From a virus, in the IMG/VR virus record IMGVR_UViG_3300012944_000005: a DNA stretch of 64,000 bases; one strand, 5' to 3'. The notes beneath the pieces are model-generated. The model was given only the letters and a program-made list of their open reading frames with translations. It was not told the DNA's origin and did no database searches. Each line of letters opens with the position of its first letter. Within the stretch, counting starts at the first letter, position 1. The position numbers and the translations under genes are program-made. Below are positions 2,585 to 50,816 of this stretch, in pieces.

Positions 2585-4018
2585 TCAGTTATACAGCGGC
2601 GAGACCCCATCAAGTCCGTTGATAACCTCGATACGCGCGCCAATCGCGGTCGTGTCGAATTCAGTCTCAAAGCTCAAAGTAAACGCGGCGAAGCCGTCGC
2701 TATCAGCGCCACGGAGCACGCCGAATTTCGCTTTAGGGATGACCACTTTCAACGCCTCATAGGTCGGCCCCGCGCCATCAAGCAGAGCGCCGCGAGCGCC
2801 AAAAATGACGCCAGTAAGTTGAACGCTGTCGCAAAGCGCTTCCCATTGAGCCAAGTTTTCATCGACCAGATACGTGATCTCGGCCGTGATCGTGCGAGGA
2901 CCGCGTGAGAGCTTTTGTAAATAAGCTCCCACACCTACACCGGTCGTGACCGTGTAATCGCCGCGCTTCTGTCGCTGGTCGCCGCCGCAACGGTCGCGCT
3001 GCGGGGAATGATTGTTGTTGATCGCGACTGACCAGGCGCGCCATCGGCAAGTCGCCGTCAGGTCCTGCAAGCCGCCGGGATCGGTGTATTGAAGGAACGG
3101 CTGCGCGTTGAGACAGGCAAACGCAGGGGCCGCTGGCAGCGTGTACGAGCCGGCTGTCGTATTCGCCGACGTCAGAGCCGGCGTGATGCCTGTGCAAGTG
3201 CCATTGTCCAGGCTCAGGTTCATCGTGGTGTCGTTAGGTGCCGTTGCGCGCGCTGTTAAGATGACGGCAGTCGTCGCGCCAGAGACGACAAAGAACCCAT
3301 TCACGATTGGATCAGCCGTCAGCGCGGCGCGCACTTTTCCTGCCCAGACGGTGGCCGTGTCAGTGCTCGTCACTGCGACCGAAACAGTCCTCGGCGAGCC
3401 GGACATTCCGGCGGCCGTGACGATGACGGTTGCGTTGCCTGATGTGCCGATTGTGCCGACCGCCGTCGCCGTCTCGACCTGTTGGACGCCTATAAGATGC
3501 GGCCTGCGGTGTTTACCCGAACCGACGAGGCTGAATTGAACCTGTACATCATCATCGCCCTGCTGCGACATGGCGAAAGAGTCAACGACGACGCCCGGCC
3601 AGAGGAATGAAGCCCCGCCAACGGCTGTCACAGCGTTGAACGATGGCAACTGTAAGCCGGCCGATTTTGGCAGCATGTTAGCCGCGTGTTGGAATGCCGT
3701 GACTGCGACCAGCGTAACCGGCGCGAGGGGTGCGCCGCCGACGCAGCGCATTGCTAGTTTCCCGTAAAGGCCGAAGTTCGCTCGATCGGTAATTCCGATG
3801 GTCTCCGGAAGGAAGCGCCGCAGACACCGACCTGTCGCGAATTCTGAGGCGTTGCCAGCACGCCCGGCGTCGTTCGAGAACTCGGGTTCAGGGATATACA
3901 CGGCCGGGCTCTGCGTCGTGGCGCGATCGTAATTCGTCCCGACCGTGACTGGCGTGTTGAATGCGCCTTCCCGTGTCGAGATGAATAGCTCAATATCTTG
4001 TGTCAAAAAATCAGGCAT
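2585..4018 (-). CDS. major tail protein candidate with inserted Thr/Ala/Val-rich domain
   Basis: 477 aa. Largest ORF between the head-tail joining genes and the chaperone/TMP block. Assigned by synteny only. Confidence 0.45.
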   Translation of the reverse strand: MPDFLTQDIELFISTREGAFNTPVTVGTNYDRATTQSPAVYIPEPEFSNDAGRAGNASEFATGRCLRRFLPETIGITDRANFGLYGKLAMRCVGGAPLAPVTLVAVTAFQHAANMLPKSAGLQLPSFNAVTAVGGASFLWPGVVVDSFAMSQQGDDDVQVQFSLVGSGKHRRPHLIGVQQVETATAVGTIGTSGNATVIVTAAGMSGSPRTVSVAVTSTDTATVWAGKVRAALTADPIVNGFFVVSGATTAVILTARATAPNDTTMNLSLDNGTCTGITPALTSANTTAGSYTLPAAPAFACLNAQPFLQYTDPGGLQDLTATCRWRAWSVAINNNHSPQRDRCGGDQRQKRGDYTVTTGVGVGAYLQKLSRGPRTITAEITYLVDENLAQWEALCDSVQLTGVIFGARGALLDGAGPTYEALKVVIPKAKFGVLRGADSDGFAAFTLSFETEFDTTAIGARIEVINGLDGVSPLYN

Positions 4019-4252
4019 AGCGTTCCCTCGTCAGGTTGTCGAGGTCGCTATGCGCTGATTGGCAGCGTTGACAGGTCTAGCTTCCGCCTTCGCCCGTCGC
4101 TCTCTCGTGTATTAATTTGTCAATCAGTCCCGAGTCTGCGGCAGCTCGCTCTCTTCCCTGCTCTCTTTGAGCCAGTCTTCCCACGCCTTCAAGATACCCT
4201 TAAAGAGCGTAATCAATCGTTCATGGAGTCGGATTGTGGCTGTCCTCATTGC

Positions 4253-4720
4253 TCAACATTGCTCAATCGTTATTTCCCCAACCGATCGATGCAGCATCTG
4301 CCCTCCGAACACGTTCAAATCAATCGTAAAATCCAATTCGCTGTTCTCTGCTATCCGGTTGATTGACTTCGGCAAGGTCGTCCTATTTGCAAACCGCGCG
4401 CAGATCGCGTCGAGTTCGGCGTTGTAGGTCAGATCGGTATTCGCCGTGCGGTCGCCGGTCTCATACCAGCGCAAGCCGCGAATCTGATAAGTAAAAAAGC
4501 GCCTCACGCATGCCGGATTCTCTCGCTTACCAAAAGTCCGCCGGCGCGTGATCACGTAGCCGTGAACCCTGTTGTCGTCGGCTGCGGAAACCAGCTTGCC
4601 CGGCCATTGCCGATCGTCCCCGCCCAAAGCCCACCAACTGAAAACAACTGCGAGCGGCGCCGCCAATTGAATCTGACCTTCGAGCTCTGCGCGCATTTGG
4701 GCTTCGGTGTAGGTCGCCAT
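4253..4720 (-). CDS. tail completion / head-tail joining protein candidate
   Basis: 155 aa. Its start overlaps the stop of the gp10-like gene. Assigned by synteny. Confidence 0.4.
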   Translation of the reverse strand: MATYTEAQMRAELEGQIQLAAPLAVVFSWWALGGDDRQWPGKLVSAADDNRVHGYVITRRRTFGKRENPACVRRFFTYQIRGLRWYETGDRTANTDLTYNAELDAICARFANRTTLPKSINRIAENSELDFTIDLNVFGGQMLHRSVGEITIEQC

Positions 4721-5097
4721 TACTCGCTCGCCCCCGACAGAAATCCGCCGCCATCAAACTGCTTCAACACGCTTTCAATCGCGGGCCGCACGAAGGGCCG
4801 ATCTTTCATAAATTCCAGCGCCTCGGCATATTCAGCGCCGATTGTGATCTGGGCTTCGGTATCAGATTTCACGCTTGTCTGAATCGAATTGATCAGAAAC
4901 CCGGTATCAACAGCGGGCGCTTCGCCTGGCGCAGAGGCGATATGGATACGGCCGCGCCGGTTGTACTCGCGCCCGCCCTTCGGCCCGGTCATCAGGATCT
5001 TCATCTCCGCTTCGATCCCGAAGGCAATGGCGCGCACGAATCGACCGATCTCTTTGTTATTGTCGCCGCTGATTTGAACGTTGAAGGTCAGACTCAT
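4720..5097 (-). CDS. HK97 gp10-family tail component
   Basis: Motif GGREYNRRGRIHIASAPGEAPAVDTGFLINSI is typical of the HK97 gp10 family. Start taken at MSLTFNV (ATG 5097). Confidence 0.6.
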   Translation of the reverse strand: MSLTFNVQISGDNNKEIGRFVRAIAFGIEAEMKILMTGPKGGREYNRRGRIHIASAPGEAPAVDTGFLINSIQTSVKSDTEAQITIGAEYAEALEFMKDRPFVRPAIESVLKQFDGGGFLSGASE

Positions 5098-5098
5098 C

Positions 5099-5374
5099 TC
5101 AGCAATTCCCTCGCGCCTTCGGTAAGACGCCACAAGATAAAGTCAACGGACGAATCTGGCGTGTCGGGACTATTTTCGGCCGCTCCCGATCAATTCGTGG
5201 CAATACTCTTTTCACTGGGGGCTCCGATTCTGGCACTGGTAAGACATATCCGACATTGCTGGCGTAATTCCCGTAAATCAGCATGCTGCCTGTCCCGCAG
5301 TCATGGCCAGAATGCCAGCCCCTGCCACAGCAGTTGCAATAACCTAAGCCGAGTAACGTGTCGGAACTGATCAC
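5099..5374 (-). CDS. small Cys/Gly-rich protein
   Basis: 91 aa. The start overlaps the upstream stop (ATGA) and the stop abuts the next start. That packing suggests a real gene. Confidence 0.35.
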   Translation of the reverse strand: MISSDTLLGLGYCNCCGRGWHSGHDCGTGSMLIYGNYASNVGYVLPVPESEPPVKRVLPRIDRERPKIVPTRQIRPLTLSCGVLPKARGNC

Positions 5375-5733
5375 GTGGTCGCCCCCGTCAATGGAATCAA
5401 TCTCAGGACGTACCCCGCGCCGATCTGTTGCTGCGGCAAAAGCTCGTCAATTGAGTACCGCAGTGTCTGCCCGTTGATTGTGAGCGCAACAGCGCCGCCG
5501 ACGTGAAGCTGATCGCGGTCAATCTCGGTATCGGTAGCCAAGACCATCTTGACTCCGGTTCCATCTTGCCCTGGTCCGCGCTGCTCACGGATGACGGAGA
5601 AACCGCCCGTAATACTGCCGATCTCGACTTCCCCGTCCGACGGTGTGACCTTGTAAAACACGGCTTGAACGTTCCGCCCGTAGAGCGTGCGGTTGATCTT
5701 GTTCAGCCGGGATTTGGCAAGGAGTGTTTTCAT
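5371..5733 (-). CDS. head-tail adaptor candidate
   Basis: 120 aa, overlapping start/stop with neighbours in the head-tail joining block. Confidence 0.4.
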   Translation of the reverse strand: MKTLLAKSRLNKINRTLYGRNVQAVFYKVTPSDGEVEIGSITGGFSVIREQRGPGQDGTGVKMVLATDTEIDRDQLHVGGAVALTINGQTLRYSIDELLPQQQIGAGYVLRLIPLTGATT

Positions 5734-9043: not shown

Positions 9044-10510
9044 CTACTGCCCGCTGTTGAACTTCTGCAACGCCAGATCTGCCAGGTTCACCTTTTTCTG
9101 CTGCTCCGCGTCGAGGCGTTGCTGCTCGACCTTAGGATCGAAGTTTGCGGGGTTCTTACCGGCCGCAGATAGGACATCCCACATTGTTTGCTTTGAGTAT
9201 TGCCCTGCGGCTTCGGCGTTCGACCAGAAGGTCATTTCCTGCGGCGTCATCGTCAGGTCGTCGAGGCTCGCGCCCAGTTCGACATTGCCACCCGTTGTGG
9301 CAGCCGGCATGAGATATTGAGCGTGGAATTTGAGCTCGAGTTCGACGGCATCTTTCAGGCTGCGCGCGGCCGTGGCGAGGTCGCTTGATTCTTCGATCTG
9401 GTCGTTCTTCTCCTCAGTCGCGGTGATCGGCCCGCCCGTGCGCTTCACGAGCAACGACAGGCCCATGATTGACATCCGCTCTTCGAGGGTTTTGATGTCG
9501 GCAGCCGCGCCGCCCAATGCCGCCCCTGTCGTCTCGGCGAATGCGACCTGACCGTTCTCGCCCACATCAAACCAGGTGTAAGGACCCACCGCTTCAATCT
9601 TTTTGCTTGTATCTCGACCGCGAAACCATAAGAGCGGCCGGCTTGCGATGTGGAGATAGATCGAAAAGTCGGAATACTTTTGATAGTGGCTGATGTTTGT
9701 CATCGCCAGGTCTAGTAATGGCGGCTGCGATTTGAGAATCCCATGCTTGCGGCTGTAGATAATTGCGACCGGAATCTCTTTGAGGGATGTTTCGCCACCA
9801 TCCTCAAAGAAGATCTTCGTCTCCTTACCGTCTTTTATCTCGCGATACAGTTCCCAACTGCCAGGCTTCAGCACTCGATAGCGCACAACTTCTTTCTCGC
9901 CGTATTCGCCATCCGACTCTTGCGAACATTCCCTAAAGACGATCAGGTCGAGCTTGGTTTGCCCGTTAACGACTACCGTCCGCCAGTTGATAATTTGATC
10001 TGCGCAATATGACACCCAATATGGACGGCGTCCCGCATTACGCTCGTCGGCAAGCGTCGCGTCTTCAGGCATCAATGGCGGCATATCCACGAGCATCGCG
10101 GCATGGCCATCGCGCATTGCGTGGGTGAAAACTTCCTTGCAGAACACAGCGCCGTGCGTGCCCGCGTTATCTATATTCTCCCACTGCCCCTCGACAGCCG
10201 TTTGAGTGTCCGTCGCTTCCCTGCCGCGAATTACTTCGGGAACGTTGTCGGCGAGTTTTGGATCGTTCCTGAAGACCATTCCAACTAGGCCGGCCAATGT
10301 CAGGTCAACGGCATTGAAGAAAATGGCGCGGCTGAGCCGGTATCTATAATGCTGATCCTCTTCACCTGGCTCACGCGGTAGATATATCGCCCCCTGTTTT
10401 CGCAATTTCAGCGTCCCAGCGGACGTATCTTCCATGATCTGCCATCCGGCCCTCATGTCCTCATAGGCGCGACAGCAATACGATGGTTGGTTTTTAGGTT
10501 CCTCGGCCAC
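9044..10510 (-). CDS. portal protein
   Basis: 488 aa, first gene of the head module. Size and synteny fit a portal. The codon at 10510 is GTG with no obvious RBS, so the start is uncertain. Confidence 0.65.
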   Translation of the reverse strand: MAEEPKNQPSYCCRAYEDMRAGWQIMEDTSAGTLKLRKQGAIYLPREPGEEDQHYRYRLSRAIFFNAVDLTLAGLVGMVFRNDPKLADNVPEVIRGREATDTQTAVEGQWENIDNAGTHGAVFCKEVFTHAMRDGHAAMLVDMPPLMPEDATLADERNAGRRPYWVSYCADQIINWRTVVVNGQTKLDLIVFRECSQESDGEYGEKEVVRYRVLKPGSWELYREIKDGKETKIFFEDGGETSLKEIPVAIIYSRKHGILKSQPPLLDLAMTNISHYQKYSDFSIYLHIASRPLLWFRGRDTSKKIEAVGPYTWFDVGENGQVAFAETTGAALGGAAADIKTLEERMSIMGLSLLVKRTGGPITATEEKNDQIEESSDLATAARSLKDAVELELKFHAQYLMPAATTGGNVELGASLDDLTMTPQEMTFWSNAEAAGQYSKQTMWDVLSAAGKNPANFDPKVEQQRLDAEQQKKVNLADLALQKFNSGQ

Positions 10511-10559: not shown

Positions 10560-10588
10560 TTGACTAAAACCCGCCAGGGGGTTATCGT
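10560..10588 (+). promoter_or_regulatory. sigma70-like promoter candidate for the plus-strand accessory operon
   Basis: TTGACT (10560-10565), a 17-nt spacer, then TATCGT (10583-10588). Located in the portal-divergent intergenic region, 50 nt upstream of the first plus-strand ORF. Confidence 0.3.
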
Positions 10589-11646: not shown

Positions 11647-12321
11647 ATGCCCCCTATCAGCCATTTTATTTATCCAGCCGCTCCGCGCGGCGCTGAATCC
11701 GGTATCTGCGCCGTCTGCGGCTTCGAGGGCGATGGCCAGTACGGCCGCGACATTCTGGACATCACGACCAGCAATGTTACGGCGCTGTTTGAATTGGCTT
11801 ACGGCCATATATGCGCGCCCTGCTATGGATTGTGGTCGAAGCCGAAATACTGGCATCGCGGGATCTTCGCCACTCGCGGCGGGGTGCGATTCCCAGTGAT
11901 CTCGCGCGAGAGCGTCACGCCTGAGCGTCCGACATGGTCGCAGGCGCTGCGCGCGCTCTCGCCCGATGAACCGCGCGCCATCGTCCTGACCACCGATCCA
12001 AAGAAACGCGTCTGGCCGTTTGCTCGTGTGTCATCCGGCGATACGGCGTGGATTTATATCCACGATCCATCGCGGGGCGTAAGCAGCAACCGCCCGGTCT
12101 CAATCAAGAAGTTGCTCGCCGCGCTCGACTTGGTTGAGCAGGTTTACGCGCTCGGCTGGTCCAAGCCCTGGATCGCCAGGAGCCTTATGGGCTCTCAAAA
12201 CGCCATCGTATCCACCGGCCTCGACGTCGCGCTCAATCTCGATCGGCGTCTAGCCCAAATCCGCAATGAGCCCGAGTTTCTGCCCGCGCTCATCGTTGCC
12301 CAAAAGGAGATTCCCGAATGA
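11647..12321 (+). CDS. csf1: Csf1-like (type IV Cas8-like) zinc-finger protein
   Basis: 224 aa with two CxxC pairs (ICAVCG and ICAPCYG) near the N-terminus, as in the Csf1 family. ATGA overlap with the next gene. Confidence 0.55.
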   Translation: MPPISHFIYPAAPRGAESGICAVCGFEGDGQYGRDILDITTSNVTALFELAYGHICAPCYGLWSKPKYWHRGIFATRGGVRFPVISRESVTPERPTWSQALRALSPDEPRAIVLTTDPKKRVWPFARVSSGDTAWIYIHDPSRGVSSNRPVSIKKLLAALDLVEQVYALGWSKPWIARSLMGSQNAIVSTGLDVALNLDRRLAQIRNEPEFLPALIVAQKEIPE

Positions 12322-13751
12322 TATTGAATTCGCACGTCCCCGCCCCATTCCGTTTCCTGATGACCGCCGCTAACTCCGTCGCGCACGGTGAGGCCGGCGC
12401 GAACTCGACCGGGCCAAACAACACAACTCTTTTCGCTCGCGAGCTGGCGCTCCTGAAGCGCGAGCAACTCGGATATGCGCCGGCGGAAGCGAAGGAGGCA
12501 TTCAAGTCCCTCTTCGAGTCTTTCCCAGTTGCAACCACGAATATTCCCTATCTCCATACCCGCTCCGGCGCTGAACTAATCGCCATTATCTTCACAGCTC
12601 AATATCCGCTGATCTACGGCGGCACGGGCGATGGACTATTTTCCGGCCTGGAGCGCTACCAATACCTGGTCACCCGGCTGACCGACGCGGCGGCGAGTTT
12701 CTCGACCCTGCCGTCTGTCTGGGGTTATGTGGCGCGCAAGCTGGCGCTGCCGATGTACCCGGAGAGCGCCTACAGCGTCATGGCCGCGCTCTACACGCTG
12801 CCGACTGCGCTTCAAGCTGCCGCGCTCTCGGCTGTGCTGAAATCCTCCGAGCTGATCGTTATGTCTGCGCGAATGATCGCCGATGGCGTCAAGGCGTCGA
12901 GCGAGGACTACGCCCGAAAGGCCAAAGTTTCGCCGACAACGCTCGAAGTTTACAGTCCGACCGACTCCCAGATAGCCGAGATTGTGGGCGATGGCGATAA
13001 GACAATAGCCATCCGCTTGCCTGCTATCTCCGGTAATTCCCTGCGCCACAACTTGCTGCGCGCGCCGGCGGCAACTCGATTGCTCTCCGAGCTTGGACTG
13101 CAACCGGATCGCGAGATCGTCCCGGTCGGCGTCGAGCGCTTTCTGTACAGCGGCGGCAATACCCAGAAGGGCGCCAAGTCTCCCGCCGCCGCCGATCTCT
13201 ATGAGGCCAGGGCGCGCGAACGGTATCCGACAATTGATGCGCTCGGCGGTTCGACCGATCAGTTTGTCATGACCCGCTCGGCTGTGAGTATCGCGGGCTG
13301 GATCGTTTGCCGCGAGAACAATTGGATTACAGAGCGACGGACGGACGGTAATATCCGCTCCGATGCGTCGATCTTCGATCTGGTGACGGAGACGACCAGA
13401 ACGCGCGCCGGCATTGGCGGCAAGGACGCTGAGAGCGGCCAGATGATTTTCTCCTATGAGACTCTCGCGGCGGGCACTCCTGTGCTCGTGGAAGTCAATT
13501 TCCAGCCCTTTACGCGCGACCTGACCGTCGGCTCGATGCTCCAATCCCTGCGCGACTGGCAGGCTGAGGGCGGCTTCATCGGCGCTCGGAGCGCGCAGGG
13601 GCATAGCCGATTCCTGGCTGAATTCCCGGACGATGATCGCTTTGCTTGGGCGGACGCCTATTTGCAATATTTGCAGGAGAACAAAATCGAGTTGGCCGAA
13701 GGGCTGCGAGCGGCGACGTTCGGAGCGGAGGTAAAACTATGCGCGGCGTAG
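12318..13751 (+). CDS. csf2: Csf2/Cas7-like RAMP protein with large helical insertion
   Basis: 477 aa. Has N-terminal FRFLMTAANSVAHGEAG, then LPAISGNSLRHNLLR (Cas7-type G/S-x-S-L-R motif), then glycine-rich GGFIGARSAQGHSRF near the C-terminus. AAAGGAG RBS. Confidence 0.55.
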   Translation: MILNSHVPAPFRFLMTAANSVAHGEAGANSTGPNNTTLFARELALLKREQLGYAPAEAKEAFKSLFESFPVATTNIPYLHTRSGAELIAIIFTAQYPLIYGGTGDGLFSGLERYQYLVTRLTDAAASFSTLPSVWGYVARKLALPMYPESAYSVMAALYTLPTALQAAALSAVLKSSELIVMSARMIADGVKASSEDYARKAKVSPTTLEVYSPTDSQIAEIVGDGDKTIAIRLPAISGNSLRHNLLRAPAATRLLSELGLQPDREIVPVGVERFLYSGGNTQKGAKSPAAADLYEARARERYPTIDALGGSTDQFVMTRSAVSIAGWIVCRENNWITERRTDGNIRSDASIFDLVTETTRTRAGIGGKDAESGQMIFSYETLAAGTPVLVEVNFQPFTRDLTVGSMLQSLRDWQAEGGFIGARSAQGHSRFLAEFPDDDRFAWADAYLQYLQENKIELAEGLRAATFGAEVKLCAA

Positions 13752-14476
13752 TTCACCTGTCCGACCTCGACCGCTACGGCGAGCGGCTCGCCGGATTGCA
13801 GATGCGCCCGCTGCGCGTCACGGCGCGCACGGTGACGCCCGTTGCCAGCAATGATCCGGTAGCGCTCGACGCCGTACTGGCGTGGACGATGGTTGTTGAG
13901 CAATTGGAAGGTCGGCCCTTTCCTCGCGTGGAAGGGCCGGTCTGGCAACCATTGCCGCTTGCGCTTGACCGCCTGATTGACGGCTTACCGCTCTGGCAGT
14001 CAACGGACTTTATGCCGGTCGGGCTGGCGAGGGGGATGAGCCATATCCACCGCCGCACGGGCGATAACCCCTACGCGATGCGCGGATTGCAAGAGACGCT
14101 CTCCCAGAAGCGCCCGCGCCGATACCCGAGTGAACTGGCCGGGCCATATATGAATTTCAGGGTTCCGGAGCGGCGGAACGTGGCGGAGAGTTGGTCGGCG
14201 ACCTGTGTCGGCAATAAGGCGGAGATCGAGCGGCTATTGAGCTACGTCCAGTTCTTCGGCAAAGCGCCGAAGCGTGGCTGCGGGTTCATATTCGATTGGG
14301 AAGTGGAATTGCTCGATGAGCTATTTTCGCTCTATAACGAATCCGGCGAGCCGCTGCGCCCGATCCCGGTCGAGTGGGACACGGGCGTCTGTGTCCAACA
14401 GGGATGGACGCCCCCGTACTGGCTGAAAGAGACATGGCGTCCCTGTCTCAGTTCAGCAGCGGCGAGGTTTGTATGA
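13739..14476 (+). CDS. csf3: Csf3/Cas5-like RAMP protein
   Basis: 245 aa from ATG 13739 (GGAGCGGAGG upstream). Has PVALDAVLAW and the C-terminal glycine-rich loop FFGKAPKRGCGFIFDWEV typical of RAMPs. Confidence 0.5.
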   Translation: MRGVVHLSDLDRYGERLAGLQMRPLRVTARTVTPVASNDPVALDAVLAWTMVVEQLEGRPFPRVEGPVWQPLPLALDRLIDGLPLWQSTDFMPVGLARGMSHIHRRTGDNPYAMRGLQETLSQKRPRRYPSELAGPYMNFRVPERRNVAESWSATCVGNKAEIERLLSYVQFFGKAPKRGCGFIFDWEVELLDELFSLYNESGEPLRPIPVEWDTGVCVQQGWTPPYWLKETWRPCLSSAAARFV

Positions 14477-14736
14477 TCGTAGGAGATTTATTCATCACGC
14501 CGCACGCCGTGCGGCAGTTTCGCGAGCGCATACCGGGAATGTGGCGGCTCAAATACGAGCAGGCGCTAGGGCTCATCCTTCGCGCGCTGCGAGAAAACAC
14601 GGCCAGCGTCAAGCCGACGCCAAACGGCTGTGGCGTCTCTATTCGCGTGCGGGGGGAGTTGAACTTTCGCGCGATTGCAGCGCGGGGCGAGGGCGTCAAG
14701 CCAGCGGTCGTAACGATTCTGCGGAGCGGAAAATGA
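14473..14736 (+). CDS. small operon protein (87 aa), unknown fold
   Basis: ATGA overlaps at both ends. Contains the motif ITPHAVRQFRER. No confident family. Confidence 0.45.
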   Translation: MIVGDLFITPHAVRQFRERIPGMWRLKYEQALGLILRALRENTASVKPTPNGCGVSIRVRGELNFRAIAARGEGVKPAVVTILRSGK

Positions 14737-15530
14737 AGGATTGGGCAGATTACGGCATCACCGGGAAAGTTCATTATGGCCAGCCGGTCAACGCCGAGCC
14801 GTACCGCCGCGTGATTCAGCGCCGAATGGCAAAGTCTCACGTTGCAATCGAGGAATTCCTTCACCTGGTCGGCAAGTCGGGCTACGTGGCCGTGAGTTTT
14901 GGCGTTGATTCCCTTGTGGCCTACGACCTGGCGCGGCGGATCTATCCGGAGATCTGTGCCGCGTGGGTCAACCAGGGGCCGCTCGCCGAGTGGCCTGACT
15001 GTCTCGCGCTGAAGAATCTGATGGTTGCCGGCGGAATACCTCTCACAGAGATCGCGCCCGACGTGACGCTCTACGACTGGTACAAGCAAAACGGGATCGA
15101 TTTCGGCGCTAACATGAACAACGCTGAGGATGAGCGACTAAATAAGGCGCTGATCTACGACCCTATCGAGCGATTCCACCAGGAAGAGAATCGCAAAGGC
15201 GTTATTTGGGGACTGCGCTGGCGAGGCGAGGGCGGGCATCGGGCTTTTGTGATCAAGGGCAATGGTGAGCTTTATCAGCGCAAGGCTGATGGTATCTGGG
15301 TCTGCTCGCCGGTCGGCAACTGGTCGAAGAGCGAGATATGGGCCTACCTGGATTTGCACGGTCTGCCCTACCCGGCTTTCTACGATCTAGACCGCGAGAA
15401 GATCCGCAACGGCCCACCTATTGGGGTCACGGGGCTGCATATGGGGCGTCTGGTGCGGTTTCGGATGCTGTTCCCGGAGATGTGGCGGGTGTTCTGTATG
15501 GAATTTGAGGAGATTCAACGATATGGCTGA
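14733..15530 (+). CDS. CysH-like PAPS reductase / PP-loop superfamily protein
   Basis: 265 aa from ATG 14733. PP-loop-like VAVSFGVDSLVAYDL, resembling the SFG-x-D/E-S motif of the PAPS reductase family. Confidence 0.6.
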   Translation: MKDWADYGITGKVHYGQPVNAEPYRRVIQRRMAKSHVAIEEFLHLVGKSGYVAVSFGVDSLVAYDLARRIYPEICAAWVNQGPLAEWPDCLALKNLMVAGGIPLTEIAPDVTLYDWYKQNGIDFGANMNNAEDERLNKALIYDPIERFHQEENRKGVIWGLRWRGEGGHRAFVIKGNGELYQRKADGIWVCSPVGNWSKSEIWAYLDLHGLPYPAFYDLDREKIRNGPPIGVTGLHMGRLVRFRMLFPEMWRVFCMEFEEIQRYG

Positions 15531-15768
15531 ACCTGTAAAACTGGACGATATCCTCATCTCCCTGGAGATATATGAGACATGGAACAAGCTGGCCTCGCAG
15601 GTCTCCACCTGTTTACCTGCCGGCGTCTCGCCGCAGGATATTGGCGACGAGGAAGCGGAAAAGAACGCTGATGGAAGTCTGACGATATTCTGTCGCGCGA
15701 AGGGCAAGCGGATCGCCCAATTGCGCATACCAGCCACTCACTGGCAATGGAGGTTTCCGGCAAATTGA
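15523..15768 (+). CDS. hypothetical operon protein (81 aa)
   Basis: MAEPVKLDDILISLEIYETW... Overlaps the upstream stop by 8 nt and the next start by 1 nt. Confidence 0.4.
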   Translation: MAEPVKLDDILISLEIYETWNKLASQVSTCLPAGVSPQDIGDEEAEKNADGSLTIFCRAKGKRIAQLRIPATHWQWRFPAN

Positions 15769-16664
15769 TGATGATCTATCTCGGACTCGATAATCAGGAG
15801 AAAGACAGGCGGATCGCTGATTACTGCGCGGCGCACGGTGTTGAGAAAGTCGTCATCCTATCGCCGGCGAAGTTTACGCTCTCCTGCTCGTTTGCCAACT
15901 CGGAAGTAGTCGAATGGGCTGAGATCATTGAATACAAATTCTTTTATAGGCTGATTCAGGAGATCAACAGCAAGACGCTGGTCGTAGTTAATGAATGCCT
16001 GCGGACGCAAAACCGCTACGATCTGACTTATAACTGCATTCGCCACTTCCTGAATCAGACCAGCCACCAGTTAATCTTCCAGCACTTGCCGATAATCGAT
16101 TCGATCGAGGACTTCATGATTCTCTTCGACTTTGACACGCGCAGCCGTTGGAAGCGCGAGAAGTTTAACGCAAAACCGCTGGGCGAGAGCCGGATCGAGG
16201 TCGCGCCCGTCGCGGTCGTCTTCAATACGATTCCGGTCGAGATCGACGCCAAACTGAAGGACGCCTATCGGAAGGAGAAAGAGCGACTACTCGCCCACAT
16301 CGGTCTGAAAGATCCGCACACGATCCCGCGTAATCTCTATCTGATGAGTGGCAAAGCAAAGCTGAAACACGTCGAGTCCGGAGGCGCCGGACTCTTCGCC
16401 GAGCGCCGTCATTATGTCGGCCGCAACAATCGCTTCAAGATCGAAACTCTTCAGACCTACAAGGAGCCGAGCTATCCAGATGCGCCTTATATGGTCTTCG
16501 AGTTTTGTCACAACTTCATCGACTTCGTGGACTTCATGGCGCTGTCGCGCCAGTCGTCCTTCGACGTCATGGTCGCCGACCTGAAGGTCGATCAATGGTA
16601 TCTGGCCCGATACCGCGAATGGGCTGAGAGGCTAAGGAATGCCACGGCAAGTTTACAGCGATAA
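15768..16664 (+). CDS. hypothetical operon protein (298 aa)
   Basis: Long ORF with ordinary globular composition. TGATG junction upstream (alternative ATG at 15747) and a 26-nt overlap downstream. No motif recognised. Confidence 0.5.
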   Translation: MMIYLGLDNQEKDRRIADYCAAHGVEKVVILSPAKFTLSCSFANSEVVEWAEIIEYKFFYRLIQEINSKTLVVVNECLRTQNRYDLTYNCIRHFLNQTSHQLIFQHLPIIDSIEDFMILFDFDTRSRWKREKFNAKPLGESRIEVAPVAVVFNTIPVEIDAKLKDAYRKEKERLLAHIGLKDPHTIPRNLYLMSGKAKLKHVESGGAGLFAERRHYVGRNNRFKIETLQTYKEPSYPDAPYMVFEFCHNFIDFVDFMALSRQSSFDVMVADLKVDQWYLARYREWAERLRNATASLQR

Positions 16665-17766
16665 AAAGAACGTCCTCGACGCTGCGCGCGGGCGCATGGT
16701 GTTTGTCTTTGATCATTTTGAGCAGATTATCGTTTCGGTGAGCGGCGGCAAGGATTCGACCGTCCTGGCGCACCTAGCGCTTGCCGAGGCGCGCCGGCGC
16801 CAGCGCAAGATCGGGCTGTTTTTTCTGGATGAGGAGGCGATGTATCAGAGTAGCGTGGATATGGTGGAATACCTGATGGGGATTTTCCCGGAAAACGTGA
16901 ATCGCCTCTGGCTACAAATTCCTTTCAACCTGACCAGCGCGACATCATTTCAGGAAAGTCAGATGCGATGCTGGGAACCGGGCAAGCATAAAGACTGGAT
17001 GCGCCAGAAGGGGCGCAACAATATCTGCGCGAAGCCTTGGCAGGAAAAGGAGGAGTCGTTCAGGAGCGGCTATAAATGGCTGGATTTCTACGGCGTGATT
17101 GAGAATTTCGAGCGATGTTATAAGGGCGCCGCTTTTCTGGTCGGCGAGCGCGCCACGGAAAGCCCGAACCGATGGCGCAGCGTGGCAAAGAATCCGGTAA
17201 TCATCGGGGGGACGAAGGTTTTCTGGGGGACACCTCGCGGCGACAATTTTATCTTTAAGCCGATCTACGACTGGAACTTCCATGATGTATGGCACTACAT
17301 TCATGACGAGAAACTGAGGTACTCGAAGATTTACGATTTTCAGTTAAAAAAAGGCTATCCGATCAATGAGATGCGGATAAGCTCCCTTATCCACGAACGA
17401 TCATTCAAAAGTTTGTGCGACCTACCTGAGTTCGAGCCGAAGACTTTTGAAAAACTCTGTCGGCGCATCAAGGGAATCGCATTTGTTCAGGAGACGGGAA
17501 AAAACGCGAAAGTCTTCAAGGCGCGGAAGCTGCCGAAGAACTTCAAATCGTGGATCACCTACCGCGATTTTTTGCTCGAAACATATCCCGACCCGGCGAA
17601 CAAGCCCATCTTCAAGAAGAGATTCGGCAAGCATCTGATCAATGAATACGTGGCGCGCCAGCATTGTCGTCAGCTTGTTTGCAATGATTACGAAAACAAC
17701 CTGCCGGTCGATAACCGCCCTGATCCGCGCGAGGAATTGATTCGCTATTATCAGGAGGTTTTATGA
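16639..17766 (+). CDS. IbrA/DndC-like PAPS-reductase-domain protein with C-terminal extension
   Basis: 375 aa. Canonical PP-loop SVSGGKDSTVLAHL plus a C-terminal extension of roughly 170 aa, as in IbrA-type (PAPS_reduct plus DUF3440) proteins. Confidence 0.6.
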   Translation: MPRQVYSDKKNVLDAARGRMVFVFDHFEQIIVSVSGGKDSTVLAHLALAEARRRQRKIGLFFLDEEAMYQSSVDMVEYLMGIFPENVNRLWLQIPFNLTSATSFQESQMRCWEPGKHKDWMRQKGRNNICAKPWQEKEESFRSGYKWLDFYGVIENFERCYKGAAFLVGERATESPNRWRSVAKNPVIIGGTKVFWGTPRGDNFIFKPIYDWNFHDVWHYIHDEKLRYSKIYDFQLKKGYPINEMRISSLIHERSFKSLCDLPEFEPKTFEKLCRRIKGIAFVQETGKNAKVFKARKLPKNFKSWITYRDFLLETYPDPANKPIFKKRFGKHLINEYVARQHCRQLVCNDYENNLPVDNRPDPREELIRYYQEVL

Positions 17767-18365
17767 CCTACTACGTTGATACGATTGAGCAATTCTACGC
17801 CATCCGAGAGAACCTGCAGCCGGCCTATATCACCTCGAAAAAGCACGGGCGTATTGAGGTTCCTTGCGCAAATACGCTCCTGGTCAACACGGAGTTAATC
17901 AAAGCGAATAATTACAATCCGAATTACGTGCCGAGGGAAAAGATGGCACTGCTACGGCAGTCCATTCTGGATAACGGCTTTTGTTCTCCTATTGTGACAA
18001 TATGGGACGACGAGCAGGAGCGATTCATCATAGTGGACGGCTTCCACCGTGACACAATGGGCGATAAGGAGTGGCTCGATCTGGATTATATTCCGCTGGT
18101 TGTCTTGAAGCACGGCATAGTGCAGCGAATGACCGCGACTGTGCAGTTTAACAAAGCGCGCGGCGTCCACCAAGTCGACCTCGACGCCGAAGTCATACGG
18201 GCGCTGATCGAGCAAAGTTTGAGCGAGGAAGAGATTGCGATCCATCTCGGCCTTGACCTGGAAACCATTCATCGCTACAAGCAATTGACCGGCGTCGCTG
18301 AGCTGTTCAAGAACTCAGCGTATTCGATGAGCTGGGAAATGGTCGAAGAAGAGGAGACGGCGTGA
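17763..18365 (+). CDS. ParB/Srx-domain protein (IbrB/DndB-like)
   Basis: 200 aa with ParB N-terminal-domain motif IIVDGFHRD. AGGAGG RBS. ATGA overlap upstream. Confidence 0.6.
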   Translation: MTYYVDTIEQFYAIRENLQPAYITSKKHGRIEVPCANTLLVNTELIKANNYNPNYVPREKMALLRQSILDNGFCSPIVTIWDDEQERFIIVDGFHRDTMGDKEWLDLDYIPLVVLKHGIVQRMTATVQFNKARGVHQVDLDAEVIRALIEQSLSEEEIAIHLGLDLETIHRYKQLTGVAELFKNSAYSMSWEMVEEEETA

Positions 18366-19000
18366 GCGACTGGGATTATGGCGGTATCCACCGCGCTTAT
18401 GATATGTCGGGCGTGATCGAGTTGCCCAACAACTCGCGCGTCGAGGTCTGCGATTGGACGGATCGGTTGCCAAGTTTCATGCTTGGCGCCGACACGATCT
18501 TTGTCGATCCGCCGTGGAATGCTGGAAATGCTAGGACATTTTATACAAAAGCTGACAAGACGGTTGCCGCTTTCAGCTTCGAATGGTTTTCCGACCGCCT
18601 ATTTTGCAGACTGGACCAGATCGCGCCGAATTATCTATTCATCGAGATGGGCAAGGAGTGGCTCGGCTGGTATCTTGAACGCTGCCGCGAGCGCTATAAA
18701 TATGTCACTTTCTATAACTCGACCTATTATAAGAAGCGCGAGAACAAGTGTTACGTGATCCACGCCACGGATAACCATTCGCGCCGGCGCTACAAAGAGC
18801 TTGAAGATCTGGACGAGGCAGCGATCATCGAATGGCTGTGCGCCAACCACGATTATCAATGCATCGGCGATCTATGCATGGGCTGCGGGTTAGTCGGTAG
18901 ACACGCTTTTCTAAACGGCAAACGGTTCGTCGGCACGGAACTGAACCCGAAGAGATTGGCTATTCTGGTCGATTTTATTCGGAAAACAAAAGGAGATTGA
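18362..19000 (+). CDS. DNA amino-methyltransferase (N6-adenine or N4-cytosine, beta-class motif order)
   Basis: 212 aa, GTG start overlapping the upstream stop. Motif IV IFVDPPWN comes before the AdoMet motif I-like IGDLCMGCGLVG. Confidence 0.65.
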   Translation: MSDWDYGGIHRAYDMSGVIELPNNSRVEVCDWTDRLPSFMLGADTIFVDPPWNAGNARTFYTKADKTVAAFSFEWFSDRLFCRLDQIAPNYLFIEMGKEWLGWYLERCRERYKYVTFYNSTYYKKRENKCYVIHATDNHSRRRYKELEDLDEAAIIEWLCANHDYQCIGDLCMGCGLVGRHAFLNGKRFVGTELNPKRLAILVDFIRKTKGD

Positions 19001-19624: not shown

Positions 19625-21007
19625 TTAGCGGAAGAACGTGCCCTGCTCGAACTGGCCGCGTGGCACTCTCACCCAGTTTGCAATCGCGAGCGCATCACCT
19701 CGATCCGGCGAACGCCCGAGACGCCTCTTGATGTCGTCTTTCGATTCCAGCTTGATTCGTCCGCGCGAGTCGTAGGCGAACTTGACGTTGCTCAGGTCCG
19801 CCGCCATCTTCCGGTCATCAGGCAGGGCCAGATCGCCAGCCTTCAGCGCCTCCCGTAGCGCCCACCACATTTCAGCGCGCGCATTGACGAATTTCCCATC
19901 TTCTCGCGCCGCGCTTCCACCAATGCACGCTTTGACGCTGACACCTTGCTCTTTTAGTCGGTCCGTAACGCCGCCACCGAGTCCAGCGTCGTCAACGCCG
20001 AGCGACAGAGCACCGAGCGCCTTCAATTGCCCTGCCGTCTCCATTAGATTCTGACCGTGGCGCACGGATGGTCGGCTGACAATGCCGCCCTCGAAGATCG
20101 AGAAAATGACGGTTTCATCCTGGCCGTAGCGCGCGATATCGCAGCCCACGCAAGCCAGTTTCGCGCCCGGCTGGGGTTCAACCCATCGTTTCTGCGCGGC
20201 TTCGACCAGCGAAAGCGGGATCAGAACGTCATCGCCTTCTTCCGGCCAGAGCCCGCGCACGCGCGCGCGATATAAGCCGCTCTCCCGTCCTCCATATTCC
20301 TGCTCTCGCTCGGCGATCCATTCCCGCGTCACGGCGCCGGGGACAACGATGCGCCCTTCCCTGACGTTTGGATGGTCTTCGGCAGACAGCCGCAGGACGT
20401 TCCACAGTCCCGAATCTTCCTTGCGCTTCGCCTCACTCGTCGGGTCTGTCGGGTTGCCGATGGCCAGAAAGCGATCATCGTTGCCGACCGCGATGCCCTC
20501 GGATGCCTCCCAGATGCCGGAATCAACCCCAATTGCCTCGTCGAAGATGATCATAATTCGCGGCGCGTGGAAGCCTTGAAAGCGCGTCGGGTCGTCGGTC
20601 GAGAGACCGATCGCAAACCAATTATCTGCGAGGATAATTTGGGTTTTATGGACAGCGCCTCCCAGTGGAAATTTCGAGGCCAGGTACGCCCCGCGTAGCT
20701 CCCGCCAAAGCAGGCTTTCGACTTGTATCCAGGTCGGCGCCGTCGTGATTACTTTGCTGTTCGGATTCGAATAAAGAAACCAGAGAGCGAGACGAGCCGC
20801 GAGGTATGTTTTTCCGACGGAATTGCCCGCCGTTACGAGTGTGCGTCGATGATCCCGCACGCTCTCCAATACAGACATCTGCTGCGGGGTGAGATATTCA
20901 GCGCCGAGCACATTGCGGATAAACCACGCCGGGTCATTCCGGCTCCGCTCCAGCACTGTCTTGGCTTGGGTTCGATTCATCACTCGCCATTTGGGCCAGG
21001 ACTGCAA
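19625..21007 (-). CDS. terL: terminase large subunit
   Basis: Walker A LVTAGNSVGKTYLA, Walker B IMIIFDEA, and a C-terminal nuclease-type region. The start may be at MNRTQ (20980). Confidence 0.8.
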   Translation of the reverse strand: MQSWPKWRVMNRTQAKTVLERSRNDPAWFIRNVLGAEYLTPQQMSVLESVRDHRRTLVTAGNSVGKTYLAARLALWFLYSNPNSKVITTAPTWIQVESLLWRELRGAYLASKFPLGGAVHKTQIILADNWFAIGLSTDDPTRFQGFHAPRIMIIFDEAIGVDSGIWEASEGIAVGNDDRFLAIGNPTDPTSEAKRKEDSGLWNVLRLSAEDHPNVREGRIVVPGAVTREWIAEREQEYGGRESGLYRARVRGLWPEEGDDVLIPLSLVEAAQKRWVEPQPGAKLACVGCDIARYGQDETVIFSIFEGGIVSRPSVRHGQNLMETAGQLKALGALSLGVDDAGLGGGVTDRLKEQGVSVKACIGGSAAREDGKFVNARAEMWWALREALKAGDLALPDDRKMAADLSNVKFAYDSRGRIKLESKDDIKRRLGRSPDRGDALAIANWVRVPRGQFEQGTFFR

Positions 21008-22829: not shown

Positions 22830-23543
22830 TTAGTTCTCTTCGGGAAACAAGTCACCGTAATCTCGAAGAATCTTGCGCGCCCATTTTACGAGGTCCCCGG
22901 CCCGCTGGCCCGGCGTCTGGCGTATTATCCATAGCTCTAAATTCTCTTCTCTATTATCGTCTCGCTTGCCATTCTTATGGTGAACGTTTTCGCCGGGCTT
23001 TAATGGGCGCCCTAAAATATGCTCCATTATAAGCCGATGCTCTGATACATATCCGCCATGACCAAATGCGGCAGGATGTTCAGGGTTATAAACACAAACA
23101 TAGCCATCCTTCTTCACGTATCTACCGCCACGCCAATTGTCGGACAAGTCGCCCCGGTTCCCTTGATACGTACATGGCCTAGAACAAAATCTACCGGCGT
23201 TGTTTGGTCGAGGACGAAATATCTTCCCGCATGTCTCGCAAGGCCGATCAGTTATTGCCTGATCTATTCTTCGGGCATGAATTCCATCGAGCGCGCATTT
23301 CTGACTGCAATATTTCTGATGCATTGAGCGGGCCATGAAGCCACTCCGACATGATTCGCATTCTCGTTCGCCATACGTTGTTTTATGGCGCTGCCCCAGT
23401 CTAACTGGATTCTCTACTCGCATTGATCGATGTAGGCAGGCTCGCGAGCAATACTTTTTATTTCTCGTCTTATTCGGCTTCAGCCAAAAAGACTTTTTAC
23501 ATTCTTGGCATTTCCATCGAATCTTCGCAACAGGCATCGGCAT
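22830..23543 (-). CDS. HNH endonuclease with three tandem zinc-ribbon modules
   Basis: Three copies of the pattern CxxC-x13/14-YCSxxC, followed by HHKNGKRDDNREENLELW (HNH motif). Confidence 0.7.
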   Translation of the reverse strand: MPMPVAKIRWKCQECKKSFWLKPNKTRNKKYCSRACLHRSMRVENPVRLGQRHKTTYGERECESCRSGFMARSMHQKYCSQKCALDGIHARRIDQAITDRPCETCGKIFRPRPNNAGRFCSRPCTYQGNRGDLSDNWRGGRYVKKDGYVCVYNPEHPAAFGHGGYVSEHRLIMEHILGRPLKPGENVHHKNGKRDDNREENLELWIIRQTPGQRAGDLVKWARKILRDYGDLFPEEN

Positions 23544-29972: not shown

Positions 29973-30162
29973 CTTTCTGATAATGTCGGCTCATCCATTG
30001 AACATCAATTGCTACGAGGATTCGCAGAAATGGAGAAGCGCAGGATCAGGTGCTTTCAATGGCTCATCCATTGAACATCAATTGCTACGTTTGAGATCCC
30101 GTATATTCCCCATTGTCGTCACACCCTTTCAATGGCTCATCCATTGAACATCAATTGCTACG
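29973..30162 (-). CRISPR. mini CRISPR array: 3 repeats (37 nt) and 2 spacers (36 nt)
   Basis: R3 (30126-30162) and R2 (30053-30089) are identical: CTTTCAATGGCTCATCCATTGAACATCAATTGCTACG. R1 (29973-30016) keeps 29 nt and is disrupted by 4-nt and 2-nt insertions. Spacers are at 30017-30052 and 30090-30125. Orientation is inferred from the cas gene, the degenerate distal repeat and the terminator. Confidence 0.85.
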
Positions 30163-50318: not shown

Positions 50319-50816
50319 ATGCCAAATGGTGATAGACGCTCAGTGCTCGATTCGCTACCCATGCAGGAGAAATTTACGAACTATACAATCAAAATTGAGT
50401 GGCACAACGGATGGGAATGTTGGCTATGGCAAGGATATCTCGTGGGTAAAGGTTATGGCGGATTTAAGCAACATCATTACATGTATCTAGCGCACAGAGT
50501 TAGTTATGAGGTTTTTGTCGAGCGAATTCCAGATGGTCTTGTTATTGACCATCTATGTCGGCGACTGAACTGTATTAACCCCGACCACCTTGAGCCCGTC
50601 ACTAGCCGTGAAAACACTCTTCGCGGTAAATCAAAAATAGCGAACTTCGCACGACGGACCCATTGCAACTATGGCCATCCTTTCTCCGGCGAGAATTTGC
50701 GAATTATGTCAGGAGGGTACCGGTCTTGCAGGGAATGCGAGCGGACATATCGAGAGAAGCACGACCAATTTAAGCGGCGACGGGAATTTAAACCGCGCCG
50801 GCGGCGATCCACATGA
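50319..50816 (+). CDS. HNH endonuclease (HNH_3-like)
   Basis: CWLWQGYLVGKGYGGF...YLAHRVSYE...VIDHLCRRLNCINPDHLEPVTSRENTLRG. Confidence 0.7.
   Translation: MPNGDRRSVLDSLPMQEKFTNYTIKIEWHNGWECWLWQGYLVGKGYGGFKQHHYMYLAHRVSYEVFVERIPDGLVIDHLCRRLNCINPDHLEPVTSRENTLRGKSKIANFARRTHCNYGHPFSGENLRIMSGGYRSCRECERTYREKHDQFKRRREFKPRRRRST

Follow-up and report, generated by a model that had tools for sequence, protein, structure and literature searches.

A phage operon joining type IV-B csf genes to a p305, IbrA, IbrB and methyltransferase module: a candidate DNA-modification machine with two alternative front ends

The DNA studied here, which we call the window, is a stretch of 64,000 nucleotides (nt) from a virus (IMG/VR virus record IMGVR_UViG_3300012944_000005). 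Three of its plus-strand open reading frames (ORFs), at 16639-17766 (375 amino acids, aa), 17763-18365 (200 aa) and 18362-19000 (212 aa), each share 4 nt with the next and encode an IbrA-like PP-loop protein, an IbrB-like ParB-fold protein and a methyltransferase; independent gene calling on the source contig (ENA ERZ27253147 k141_3893551, 66,183 bp) gave the same three genes. A first-pass annotation of the window had read them as a DNA-modification triad. The three genes are real, but the unit is a tetrad, whose fourth member, missed earlier, is the gene for p305, directly upstream of IbrA. The tetrad is part of a ten-gene plus-strand operon (approximately 11647-19000) that also carries the gene set of CRISPR-Cas subtype IV-B, and in related loci the csf genes alternate with a SNF2 helicase as what we call the front end of the module. 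The p305-containing tetrad has no name and is absent from GenBank phages. We tentatively favour its interpretation as a late-expressed phage machine for DNA modification and anti-restriction, in which a SNF2 motor or a Csf complex would engage the DNA.

The assignment of p305 to the module rests on 36 loci from IMG/VR and 11 from genomes or metagenome-assembled genomes (MAGs), gathered through IbrA relatives of 57-72% identity. p305, IbrA and IbrB were contiguous in 46 of the 46 loci with the necessary DNA; p305 stood directly upstream of IbrA wherever upstream DNA was available, and the adjacency of IbrA and IbrB was kept in all loci. The methyltransferase gene was present in nearly all of them, either after IbrB or directly upstream of p305. 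In one ENA contig (ERZ1426827) a GIY-YIG ORF was seen between IbrA and IbrB. The MAGs with IbrA relatives in this identity range are binned to Acidobacteria, Methylomonas (Gammaproteobacteria), Desulfobulbales, Myxococcota and Chloroflexota, with further bins from Paceibacterota (candidate phyla radiation, CPR), Izemoplasmatales, Pelotomaculum and Ruminococcus (Firmicutes). Among phage accessory genes such conservation across hosts is unusually high, whereas the Cas proteins linked to it were only 17-32% identical to those of the window. The IbrA family has at least 1,662 members, and at least 769 homologues of p305 were found, all named 'hypothetical'. No match to p305 was obtained by tblastn against 50,697 GenBank phage records. 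IbrA/IbrB-like pairs occur in 214 GenBank phage records, where they are known by annotation only. A nucleotide search of the operon against GenBank phages returned a single match of 150 nt, and the operon is therefore without a close cultured relative.

To compare the surroundings of the tetrad, all ORFs of these loci were annotated with local profiles and clustered. Loci without cas genes carried, directly upstream of p305, a gene for a zinc-ribbon protein (about 375-390 aa) and one for a canonical SNF2 helicase (about 470 aa) with the motifs GTGKT, DES and QAEDRxHRIGQ. The two were sometimes fused (L016). The pair is intein-split in L017, where at 3124-5586 an intein interrupts the Walker A region of the helicase. 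Upstream of p305, 3 kb or more was available in 33 loci: 11 had only IV-B genes, 20 had only the SNF2 pair, none had both and two had neither (Fisher p = 4e-7, a value that overstates independence, as the loci are phylogenetically related). Seven p305 homologues selected solely for their long contigs (46-473 kb) were then added; six proved to be of the IV-B type and one of the SNF2 type, as judged from Pfam Csf1 and Csf3 matches on gene calls. The 40 loci with enough flank thus comprised 17 with IV-B only, 21 with SNF2 only, none with both and two with neither. Divergent Cas7 and Cas5 proteins of these loci, in the identity range given above, were confirmed by PADLOC with values of 1e-30 to 1e-78.

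Where the IV-B genes were present, the tetrad was usually embedded in them. In at least 12 of the 19 IV-B loci it separated the core csf genes from what remained of the system, usually cysH; the most frequent order was csf1-cas11-cas7-csf3-MT-p305-IbrA-IbrB-cysH (MT, methyltransferase gene), with the variants cas7-cysH-p305-IbrA-IbrB-MT-csf3 and cas7-p305-IbrA-IbrB-MT-cysH. The IV-B and SNF2 states were intermixed on an unbootstrapped neighbour-joining tree of IbrA: the window was sister to a locus of the SNF2 type, L043 (IV-B) was sister to L044 (SNF2), and a SNF2 clade was nested among IV-B loci. This intermixing, on a tree without support values, suggests several independent swaps of the front end. 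What looks like an independent association of IV-B with IbrA and IbrB was found in L038 (10926-12871), in a close relative of the window's IV-B system; here a distant pair (30-38% identity, IbrA of 418 aa) directly follows cysH, without p305 or methyltransferase.

The ten genes of the window operon, and a repeat array elsewhere in the window, are as follows.

11647-12321, plus strand: csf1, Cys-rich, the type IV Cas8-like large subunit (PADLOC typeIV_Cas8 Csf1, E 9e-7, residues 12-215); first in the cas operon, overlapping the next gene
12318-13751, plus strand: cas11::cas7 (csf2) fusion of 477 aa (PADLOC typeIV_Cas7, 2e-30, residues 231-463)
13739-14476, plus strand: csf3, the type IV Cas5 (PADLOC typeIV_Cas5, 3.5e-27; NCBIfam cas5_csf3, 1e-11; Pfam PF27782 Csf3 on the source contig gene call)
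14473-14736, plus strand: small ORF of 87 aa between csf3 and cysH, a called gene overlapping both neighbours, with homologues in L011 and L047
14733-15530, plus strand: cysH-like gene for CasCysH, a protein of the phosphoadenosine phosphosulfate (PAPS) reductase fold and the type IV-B signature gene (Pfam PAPS_reduct, 1.5e-8)
15523-15768, plus strand: small ORF of 81 aa between cysH and p305, a called gene on the source contig, without family match
15768-16664, plus strand: p305, SNF2-like (two RecA lobes) by predicted fold, with degenerate ATPase motifs; directly upstream of IbrA
16639-17766, plus strand: IbrA-like PP-loop ATP pyrophosphatase (PAPS_reduct and DUF3440), assigned from Pfam, PHROG and motif
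17763-18365, plus strand: IbrB-like protein of the ParB/Srx fold with a C-terminal helix-turn-helix (HTH)-like segment, assigned from PHROG and motifs
18362-19000, plus strand: minimal beta-class DNA amino-methyltransferase (DPPW), assigned from family profile and motif order
29980-30162, minus strand: CRISPR-like mini-array of three 37-nt repeats and two 36-nt spacers, recognised by its repeat structure; the same array is present in L057

According to the gene calls made on the source contig, each of the 10 genes from csf1 through the methyltransferase gene overlaps its neighbours. Positions 10560-10588 resemble a promoter, and a convincing plus-strand terminator was not found inside the operon; both are weak evidence. 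On one side the cluster is flanked by the portal gene (9044-10510; PHROG 145, 2e-113) with scaffold and major head genes, and on the other by the gene for the large terminase subunit, TerL (19625-21007; PHROG 2, 6e-39), with one for a Mu-F/SPP1 gp7-like head protein. The operon runs opposite to these portal and large terminase genes. The IbrA/IbrB pair also adjoins packaging genes in phage FCV-1, and in several IMG/VR loci it stands beside a conserved ORF of about 450-480 aa, presumed to be TerL from its position in L041 and L043 only. Searches with the 87-aa ORF (14473-14736) gave no family match among Pfam, NCBIfam, PHROG and PADLOC profiles.

The combination of csf1, cas11, cas7 and csf3 with a cysH-like gene defines subtype IV-B, and by its sequence matches the operon contains this set. 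The N-terminal part of the Cas7 ORF (about 225 aa) occupies the place of cas11 and is conserved in relatives; the equivalent part of the homologous fusion in L012 matched typeIV_Cas11 at 1.5e-8, and L013, L022 and L047 have a separate ORF of 125-162 aa at the cas11 position. The window's N-terminus also aligned weakly (10 bits) with the unannotated, position-inferred cas11 ORF of Rhodococcus jostii RHA1 pRHL3. The closest plasmid relatives of the window cysH were cysH-like genes beside csf on Rhodococcus and Mycobacterium plasmids, pRHL3 among them. The PP-loop of CasCysH is degenerate in the window clade (SFGVDS, with the lysine lost), and other clades keep S-x-GKDS. No cysteine is conserved in the cysH-like protein, which is consistent with published CasCysH proteins, in which the catalytic cysteine is lacking. 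In or beside the operon we recognised no DinG/RecD helicase, Cas6, nuclease or adaptation genes; neither in the window nor in 21 related loci was a CRISPR array found beside the cas genes. Type IV-B is described as being without array, nuclease and helicase, and its cysH-like gene as unexplained; reviews have placed the key to IV-B function in that gene and have speculated on epigenetic roles. Phage-borne IV-B systems have already been reported. A gene between csf3 and the methyltransferase gene of L059 (6514-7398) gave a weak Cas6 match in Pfam; L059 is a 123-kb contig of jumbo-phage-like content (RtcB, Cpn60, DNA polymerase III subunits, ribonucleotide reductase), with no array within the 17 kb fetched.

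At a distance of 14.5 kb from cysH, two minus-strand genes leave an intergenic gap that holds the mini-array. Its period is 73, its repeat reads CTTTCAATGGCTCATCCATTGAACATCAATTGCTACG on the plus strand, its two spacers are unique and the copy at 29980 is degenerate. On the minus strand, the likely orientation, the repeat ends with ATTGAAAG and can form an 8-bp hairpin (-8.7 kcal/mol, z -2.4). L057, in which the array recurs, is a near-identical contig from another metagenome. The spacers had no match within the window; the repeat was absent from IMG/VR viral contigs, and in metagenomes it was found only in the near-identical phage copy, so that host and spacer targets were not identified. The array is possibly a source of guides for the Csf complex, or a decoy for a host system.

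The sequence of p305 had no match in Pfam or the PDB. Its AlphaFold2 model (predicted local distance difference test, pLDDT, 92) was matched by Foldseek to the ATPase cores of ISWI, Chd1, INO80 and SNF2h with a probability of 1.0 and a template modelling (TM) score of about 0.6, and also to a phage 'chromatin remodeling ATPase' and SNF2 helicases; the predicted fold is of the SNF2 type, with two RecA lobes. Alignment with the neighbouring SNF2 helicases of other loci by hhalign (E 3e-4) placed NEC of p305 against DES (motif II) and HQLIFQxLP against YRLILNGTP (motif III). The Walker A position of p305 reads GxxxxEK, the other motifs read [ND]E and FQxLP, and the Pfam family SNF2-rel_dom was touched by one of 25 members of the p305 family (E 0.034). 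Because the canonical motifs (GxGKT, DExx and motif III) and a Pfam SNF2 match are not found in p305, we file it, from the model, as SNF2-like with degenerate ATPase motifs and not as a member of the SNF2 family.

The IbrA-like protein matched Pfam PAPS_reduct (PF01507; E 1.3e-12, 48.5 bits against a cut-off of 22.5), Pfam DUF3440 (PF11922; 1.2e-7, 32.1 bits against a cut-off of 25) and PHROG 2302 (1e-79). The architecture of PAPS_reduct followed by DUF3440 was present in all 120 IbrA homologues among the matches listed. The PP-loop SGGKDS (residues 35-40) was invariant in 24 and in 41 aligned relatives, and no cysteine was invariant across the family in an alignment that included L038 and FCV-1. 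Structural comparison of the AlphaFold2 model matched the N-terminal domain to the FAD synthase PAPS domain, CysH, adenosine phosphosulfate (APS) reductase, CysD, TtuA and TilS, and the closest structures were adenylyl-transferring or PAPS-binding enzymes in general. Enzymes of the PAPS-reductase fold are known to bind or transfer adenylyl groups, as in CysD, FMN adenylyltransferase/FAD synthase, CysH and DndC/SspD. The model was only moderately confident in DUF3440, with a pLDDT below 50 at residues 249-294, and that domain gave no readable function. The C-terminal half of IbrA was matched by PADLOC model PDLC03333, which is named for a type II methyltransferase. The name IbrA itself rests on transitive evidence: phage homologues carry it in GenBank, as 'co-activator of prophage gene expression IbrA'. 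PHROG and GenBank also use the label 'phosphoadenosine phosphosulfate reductase', classed as an auxiliary metabolic gene; the COG name of the IbrA-like family is 'predicted PAPS sulfurtransferase'.

The IbrB-like protein matched PHROG 2159 ('ParB-like') at 2e-41, the ParB::methyltransferase fusion profile PHROG 498, and Pfam ParB_N below threshold (18 bits; cut-off 26.3). Its relatives share the invariant motifs NYNPN, DGFHR and RM.AT.QFN.ARG.HQ and a conserved C-terminal HTH-like segment, and on these sequence features, with DGFHR as the Box II-type arginine motif, we place IbrB in the ParB/Srx superfamily. In phages, fusions of ParB-fold domains to N6_N4 methyltransferases are frequent. ParB-like proteins are moreover required partners or activators of modification enzymes: DpdB acts with DpdA, and a ParB-like protein with 5mYOX T-dioxygenases.

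The methyltransferase alone gave no significant Pfam match (13.2 bits, sub-threshold), and 26 of the 31 members of its family matched N6_N4_Mtase (PF01555; best 8e-9). A profile of the family found the solved beta-class DNA methyltransferases 8urk, DpnA, CcrM, MboIIA and RsrI (best 1e-9). Motif IV, DPPW (residues 49-52), precedes motif I, DLCMGCG (DxCxGxG; residues 170-176), which is the beta-class order. By this motif order and the family profile the protein is assigned as a beta-class N6/N4 amino-methyltransferase. DPPW rather than SPPY suggests N6-adenine, and the enzyme is probably of the N6-adenine type.

The matches of IbrA, IbrB, the methyltransferase and the second PP-loop enzyme are far above chance. 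The first-pass annotation had recognised all four from the letters of the window: a PAPS-reductase-domain protein with SGGKDS, a ParB/Srx-domain IbrB-like protein, a beta-class amino-methyltransferase with DPPW before an FxGxG-like motif, and a second PP-loop enzyme in the same operon, and each of these identifications held. The last had been called unusual; there are two PP-loop enzymes in one operon because one of them is the CasCysH of type IV-B. The idea that the genes form a DNA-modification unit gained support from gene fusions elsewhere, although phosphorothioation, the chemistry that had been likened to it, is unlikely.

Starting from the observed gene content, operon structure, conservation and either/or pattern, and from the predicted protein folds, we propose that the module puts a mark on DNA once it has been replicated, most probably on that of the phage itself at about the stage of packaging, and that the phage would thereby escape host defences of the restriction type. 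The methyltransferase would add N6-methyladenine (or N4-methylcytosine). IbrB would load onto DNA and activate or position IbrA, like the ParB-like partners of DpdA and of the phage T-dioxygenases, and IbrA may then spend ATP to adenylylate a group on the DNA, which would yield a second modification, neither methyl nor sulfur. p305 would be the adaptor to a DNA-engaging front end. In most relatives this front end would be the zinc-ribbon protein with its genuine SNF2 translocase; in the window, as in about 40% of relatives, it would be the Csf ribonucleoprotein (Csf1, Cas11::Cas7 and Csf3) with its cysH-like partner, a complex that may bind DNA through its RNA and open an R-loop for the enzymes.

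We read the module as one that marks DNA because of the ParB-like partners, the methyltransferase fusions, the SNF2 family of double-stranded DNA (dsDNA) translocases and the position among packaging genes. The N6_N4_Mtase family of the methyltransferase is DNA-specific, which also supports a DNA substrate. The link to p305 and the interchangeability with SNF2 fit a helicase theme, because a DNA helicase (DinG or RecD) belongs to every other type IV subtype but is lacking from IV-B. A precedent for such a role is a fusion of a PAPS domain to Dam which, with one adjacent gene of unknown function, counters Dnd in a Vibrio phage (Piel et al. 2022).

Several points weigh against this interpretation. 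E. coli IbrA and IbrB have been described as activators of eib expression and not as modification enzymes. The sole type IV-B complex so far studied was found with heterogeneous RNA, and no binding to DNA was demonstrated for it. Some components may be non-catalytic: the PP-loop lysine of CasCysH is lost in the window clade, and p305 is without a canonical Walker A motif. IV-B also occurs without the tetrad, in the phages L039, L041 and L042 and on actinobacterial plasmids, and half of the loci have the tetrad but no IV-B genes. A hotspot of accessory genes near the packaging genes houses both parts, so their co-location may be partly positional, and the relatedness of the loci lowers the weight of the Fisher test.

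A bolder version of the proposal, which we consider unlikely, is that type IV-B is a natural RNA-guided DNA-modification system. The Csf complex, with crRNA-like (CRISPR RNA-like) or other RNAs, perhaps from the phage's own mini-array, would form R-loops; the SNF2-like adaptor would recruit the methyltransferase, IbrA/IbrB and CasCysH, and the mark would be written at or around the target. In the sister phages the SNF2 motor would do the same job without a guide. The DNA-marking enzyme would then have two paralogous PP-loop subunits, and the cysH-like gene would encode one of them.

The rival to be taken most seriously, rather doubtful in our view yet better placed than RNA guidance, is that two independent accessory modules share a hotspot, the IV-B genes serving for example as a crRNA sponge or an anti-CRISPR, roles that have been proposed for IV-B in the literature, and the other genes being an ordinary anti-restriction set. 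Each module does exist without the other; neither the order nor the orientation of the genes is constant, with the modules of L043 and L060 pointing towards each other, and relatives differ in the terminase-portal region. Genes of the AcrVA2-like type near the modules of L062 and L063 also suggest anti-defence islands. A shared hotspot nevertheless does not account for the tetrad's place between csf3 and cysH in the majority of IV-B loci, for the overlap of all ten genes in the window, for the failure of IV-B ever to co-occur with the SNF2/zinc-ribbon pair (0 of 40), or for what appear to be repeated swaps. Moreover, IV-B is rare: when 2.9 million viral contigs were scanned for close relatives of the window's Cas7, 6 loci were returned, yet it is found in about 40% of tetrad loci. 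The AcrVA2-like genes (PF26125) lie just downstream of the module, at 13340-14284 in L062 and at 11226-12149 in L063, one a locus of the IV-B type and the other of the SNF2 type; their presence hints at the context of an anti-defence island.

We give much less weight to the remaining rivals. Regulation of gene expression, with IbrA and IbrB as co-activators or anti-silencers of (pro)phage genes and the methyltransferase as an unrelated neighbour, is the first of these and improbable. Sandt and Hill reportedly found E. coli IbrA/IbrB to be activators of eib gene expression. The co-activator annotation and this report on E. coli eib loci, the HTH-like segment of IbrB, the role of ParB-fold proteins such as KorB in transcription control and the temperate-like character of the phage (two tyrosine recombinases) all fit regulation, but the invariant PP-loop, the conserved methyltransferase partner and the SNF2 and Csf front ends are hard to explain by it; fusions of the same domains to methyltransferases indicate chemical action on nucleic acid, of which regulation could be a downstream effect. 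Slightly less probable still is an auxiliary gene of sulfur metabolism (a true PAPS reductase) or a system for modification of RNA (tRNA). Such a role would agree with the PAPS reductase and auxiliary metabolic gene labels in PHROG and GenBank, with the many PP-loop enzymes that modify tRNA (TilS and TtuA are among the structural matches), with the binding of RNA by type IV-B complexes, and with two large contigs in which the module has RtcB and RNA ligase genes nearby. It is opposed by the absence of the catalytic C-terminal cysteine motif, by the obligatory linkage to partners that comprise a ParB/HTH protein and members of a DNA methyltransferase and a dsDNA translocase family, and by the lack of sulfur-assimilation genes among the annotated neighbours. 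A PAPS reductase of sulfate assimilation was rejected for the missing catalytic cysteine and the obligatory DNA-related partners.

Least probable of all, on the sequence evidence, is phosphorothioation of the Dnd or Ssp kind, in which IbrA would act as DndC/SspD and IbrB as DndB to place sulfur in the DNA backbone. The first-pass annotation had drawn the parallel to DndC and DndB, and the shared superfamily stands, as do PADLOC matches of DndC models to IbrA residues 162-225 at about 1e-7 and of SspD at 1.6e-3; a phage PAPS-domain protein is also known to counter Dnd. The NCBIfam DndC model (TIGR03183), however, gave 22.6 bits against a cut-off of 290.4 and covered 61 residues only (165-225). 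No cysteine is conserved in the IbrA or the cysH-like family, and there is accordingly no site for an Fe-S cluster or a persulfide; the closest structures are, as noted, adenylyl-transferring or PAPS-binding enzymes in general. Cysteine desulfurase (DndA/IscS), DndD/SspC and DndE/SspB were not recognised among the approximately 30 window ORFs searched, with many others unscanned, and the related loci were screened only with profiles of the window's own proteins and a few precomputed Pfam calls, so that the absence of Dnd genes there was not properly tested. It is the failed DndC model, the missing conserved cysteine and the lack of Dnd genes among the ORFs searched that make phosphorothioation unlikely. 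For IbrB no DndB match was found in NCBIfam or PADLOC, and its motif is DGFHR, not DGQHR. An identity of the pair as DndC/DndB was rejected on the DndC score, the lack of a conserved cysteine and the lack of a DndB match.

Other features of the window were noted in passing. Two tyrosine recombinase (integrase) genes are present at 48406-49563 and 54784-55680, from which the phage is probably temperate or a user of site-specific recombination. A gene at 53248-53964 for a chitinase class I-like protein (glycoside hydrolase 19) likely encodes the endolysin, and two HNH_3 endonuclease genes are found at 22830-23543 and 50319-50816. Together with the intein of L017 and the GIY-YIG ORF of the ENA contig, the latter count as selfish elements in and around the module. 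A 23-nt motif (CTGTCGGCGTCGGCCA...) occurs three times at 32674-32873, about 88 nt apart, within a minus-strand ORF and is probably a protein repeat. An Rfam scan of the window returned no known RNA.

In the literature searched, no link of type IV-B to IbrA/IbrB, ParB-like or SNF2-like genes was found; one figure legend lists 'N6-MTase' among IV-B neighbours. The window and about 20 related phage loci now give missing context for IV-B, the most enigmatic CRISPR-Cas subtype: among its cas genes stand those for a methyltransferase, a second PP-loop enzyme and ParB-like and SNF2-like proteins, and the Csf set appears swappable with a SNF2 translocase. Two hypotheses thereby become testable, that Csf is the DNA-engaging front end of a modification machine and that CasCysH and IbrA are paralogous partners. 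The module is widespread and uncharacterised; it may write an undescribed DNA mark and may help phages to withstand restriction, Dnd/Ssp and BREX. Should the RNA guidance prove real, the system would be a natural programmable DNA modifier.

Comparison with known systems places the operon between several of them. The type IV-B systems of R. jostii RHA1 pRHL3 and Mycobacterium sp. JS623, whose Csf complex structure has been solved, have the same csf1/cas11/csf2/csf3/cysH-like set, and neither in these plasmid systems nor at the window locus were Cas6, helicase, nuclease or adaptation genes or an adjacent array recognised. Unlike them, the window system is carried by a phage, where terminase and portal genes flank it; cas11 forms a fusion with cas7, cysH is co-directional and not divergent, a mini-array lies 14.5 kb away, and the operon adds the genes for the methyltransferase, the SNF2-like protein, IbrA and IbrB, none of which was seen in the plasmid loci examined.

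E. coli IbrA/IbrB and their phage homologues (in Flavobacterium phages FCL-2, FCV-1 and 6H and in Streptococcus, Lactobacillus and Mycobacterium phages) show the same PAPS_reduct and DUF3440 architecture beside a ParB-like gene, at 30-36% identity to the phage homologues. The arrangement in FCV-1 is close: SNF2-like gp07, ParB-like gp08 and PAPS reductase gp09 lie between terminase and portal genes. These cultured-phage versions differ in being without p305 (among the 50,697 GenBank records) and without type IV-B (Cas7 tblastn against GenBank phages). The pairing of a PP-loop enzyme of the PAPS-reductase superfamily with a protein of the ParB superfamily acting on DNA is shared with DndB/DndC, SspD and BrxP, and IbrA differs from DndC in having the C-terminal DUF3440 domain instead of DndC-specific regions. 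The anti-Dnd protein of the Vibrio phage (Piel et al. 2022) likewise joins a phage PAPS fold to an N6-adenine methyltransferase and evades a defence based on DNA modification; it is one fused polypeptide with one gene of unknown function, for which no ParB, SNF2-like or Cas partners have been reported, and the likeness noted here is one of described domains.

In the 5mYOX T-dioxygenase and DpdA/DpdB 7-deazaguanine systems an orphan ParB-fold NTP-binding protein is encoded beside a post-replication DNA modifier that requires it, often near the terminase gene; there catalysis falls to a dioxygenase or a transglycosylase instead of a PP-loop enzyme. Types IV-A and IV-D combine a Csf complex with a DinG or RecD motor of superfamily 1 or 2, and the Csf genes of the window are linked to a SNF2-like protein and are interchangeable with a SNF2 helicase. 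In contrast to IV-A and IV-D, p305 is without a canonical Walker A motif, the locus has no Cas6 and no adjacent array, and the partners of the Csf genes are modification enzymes.

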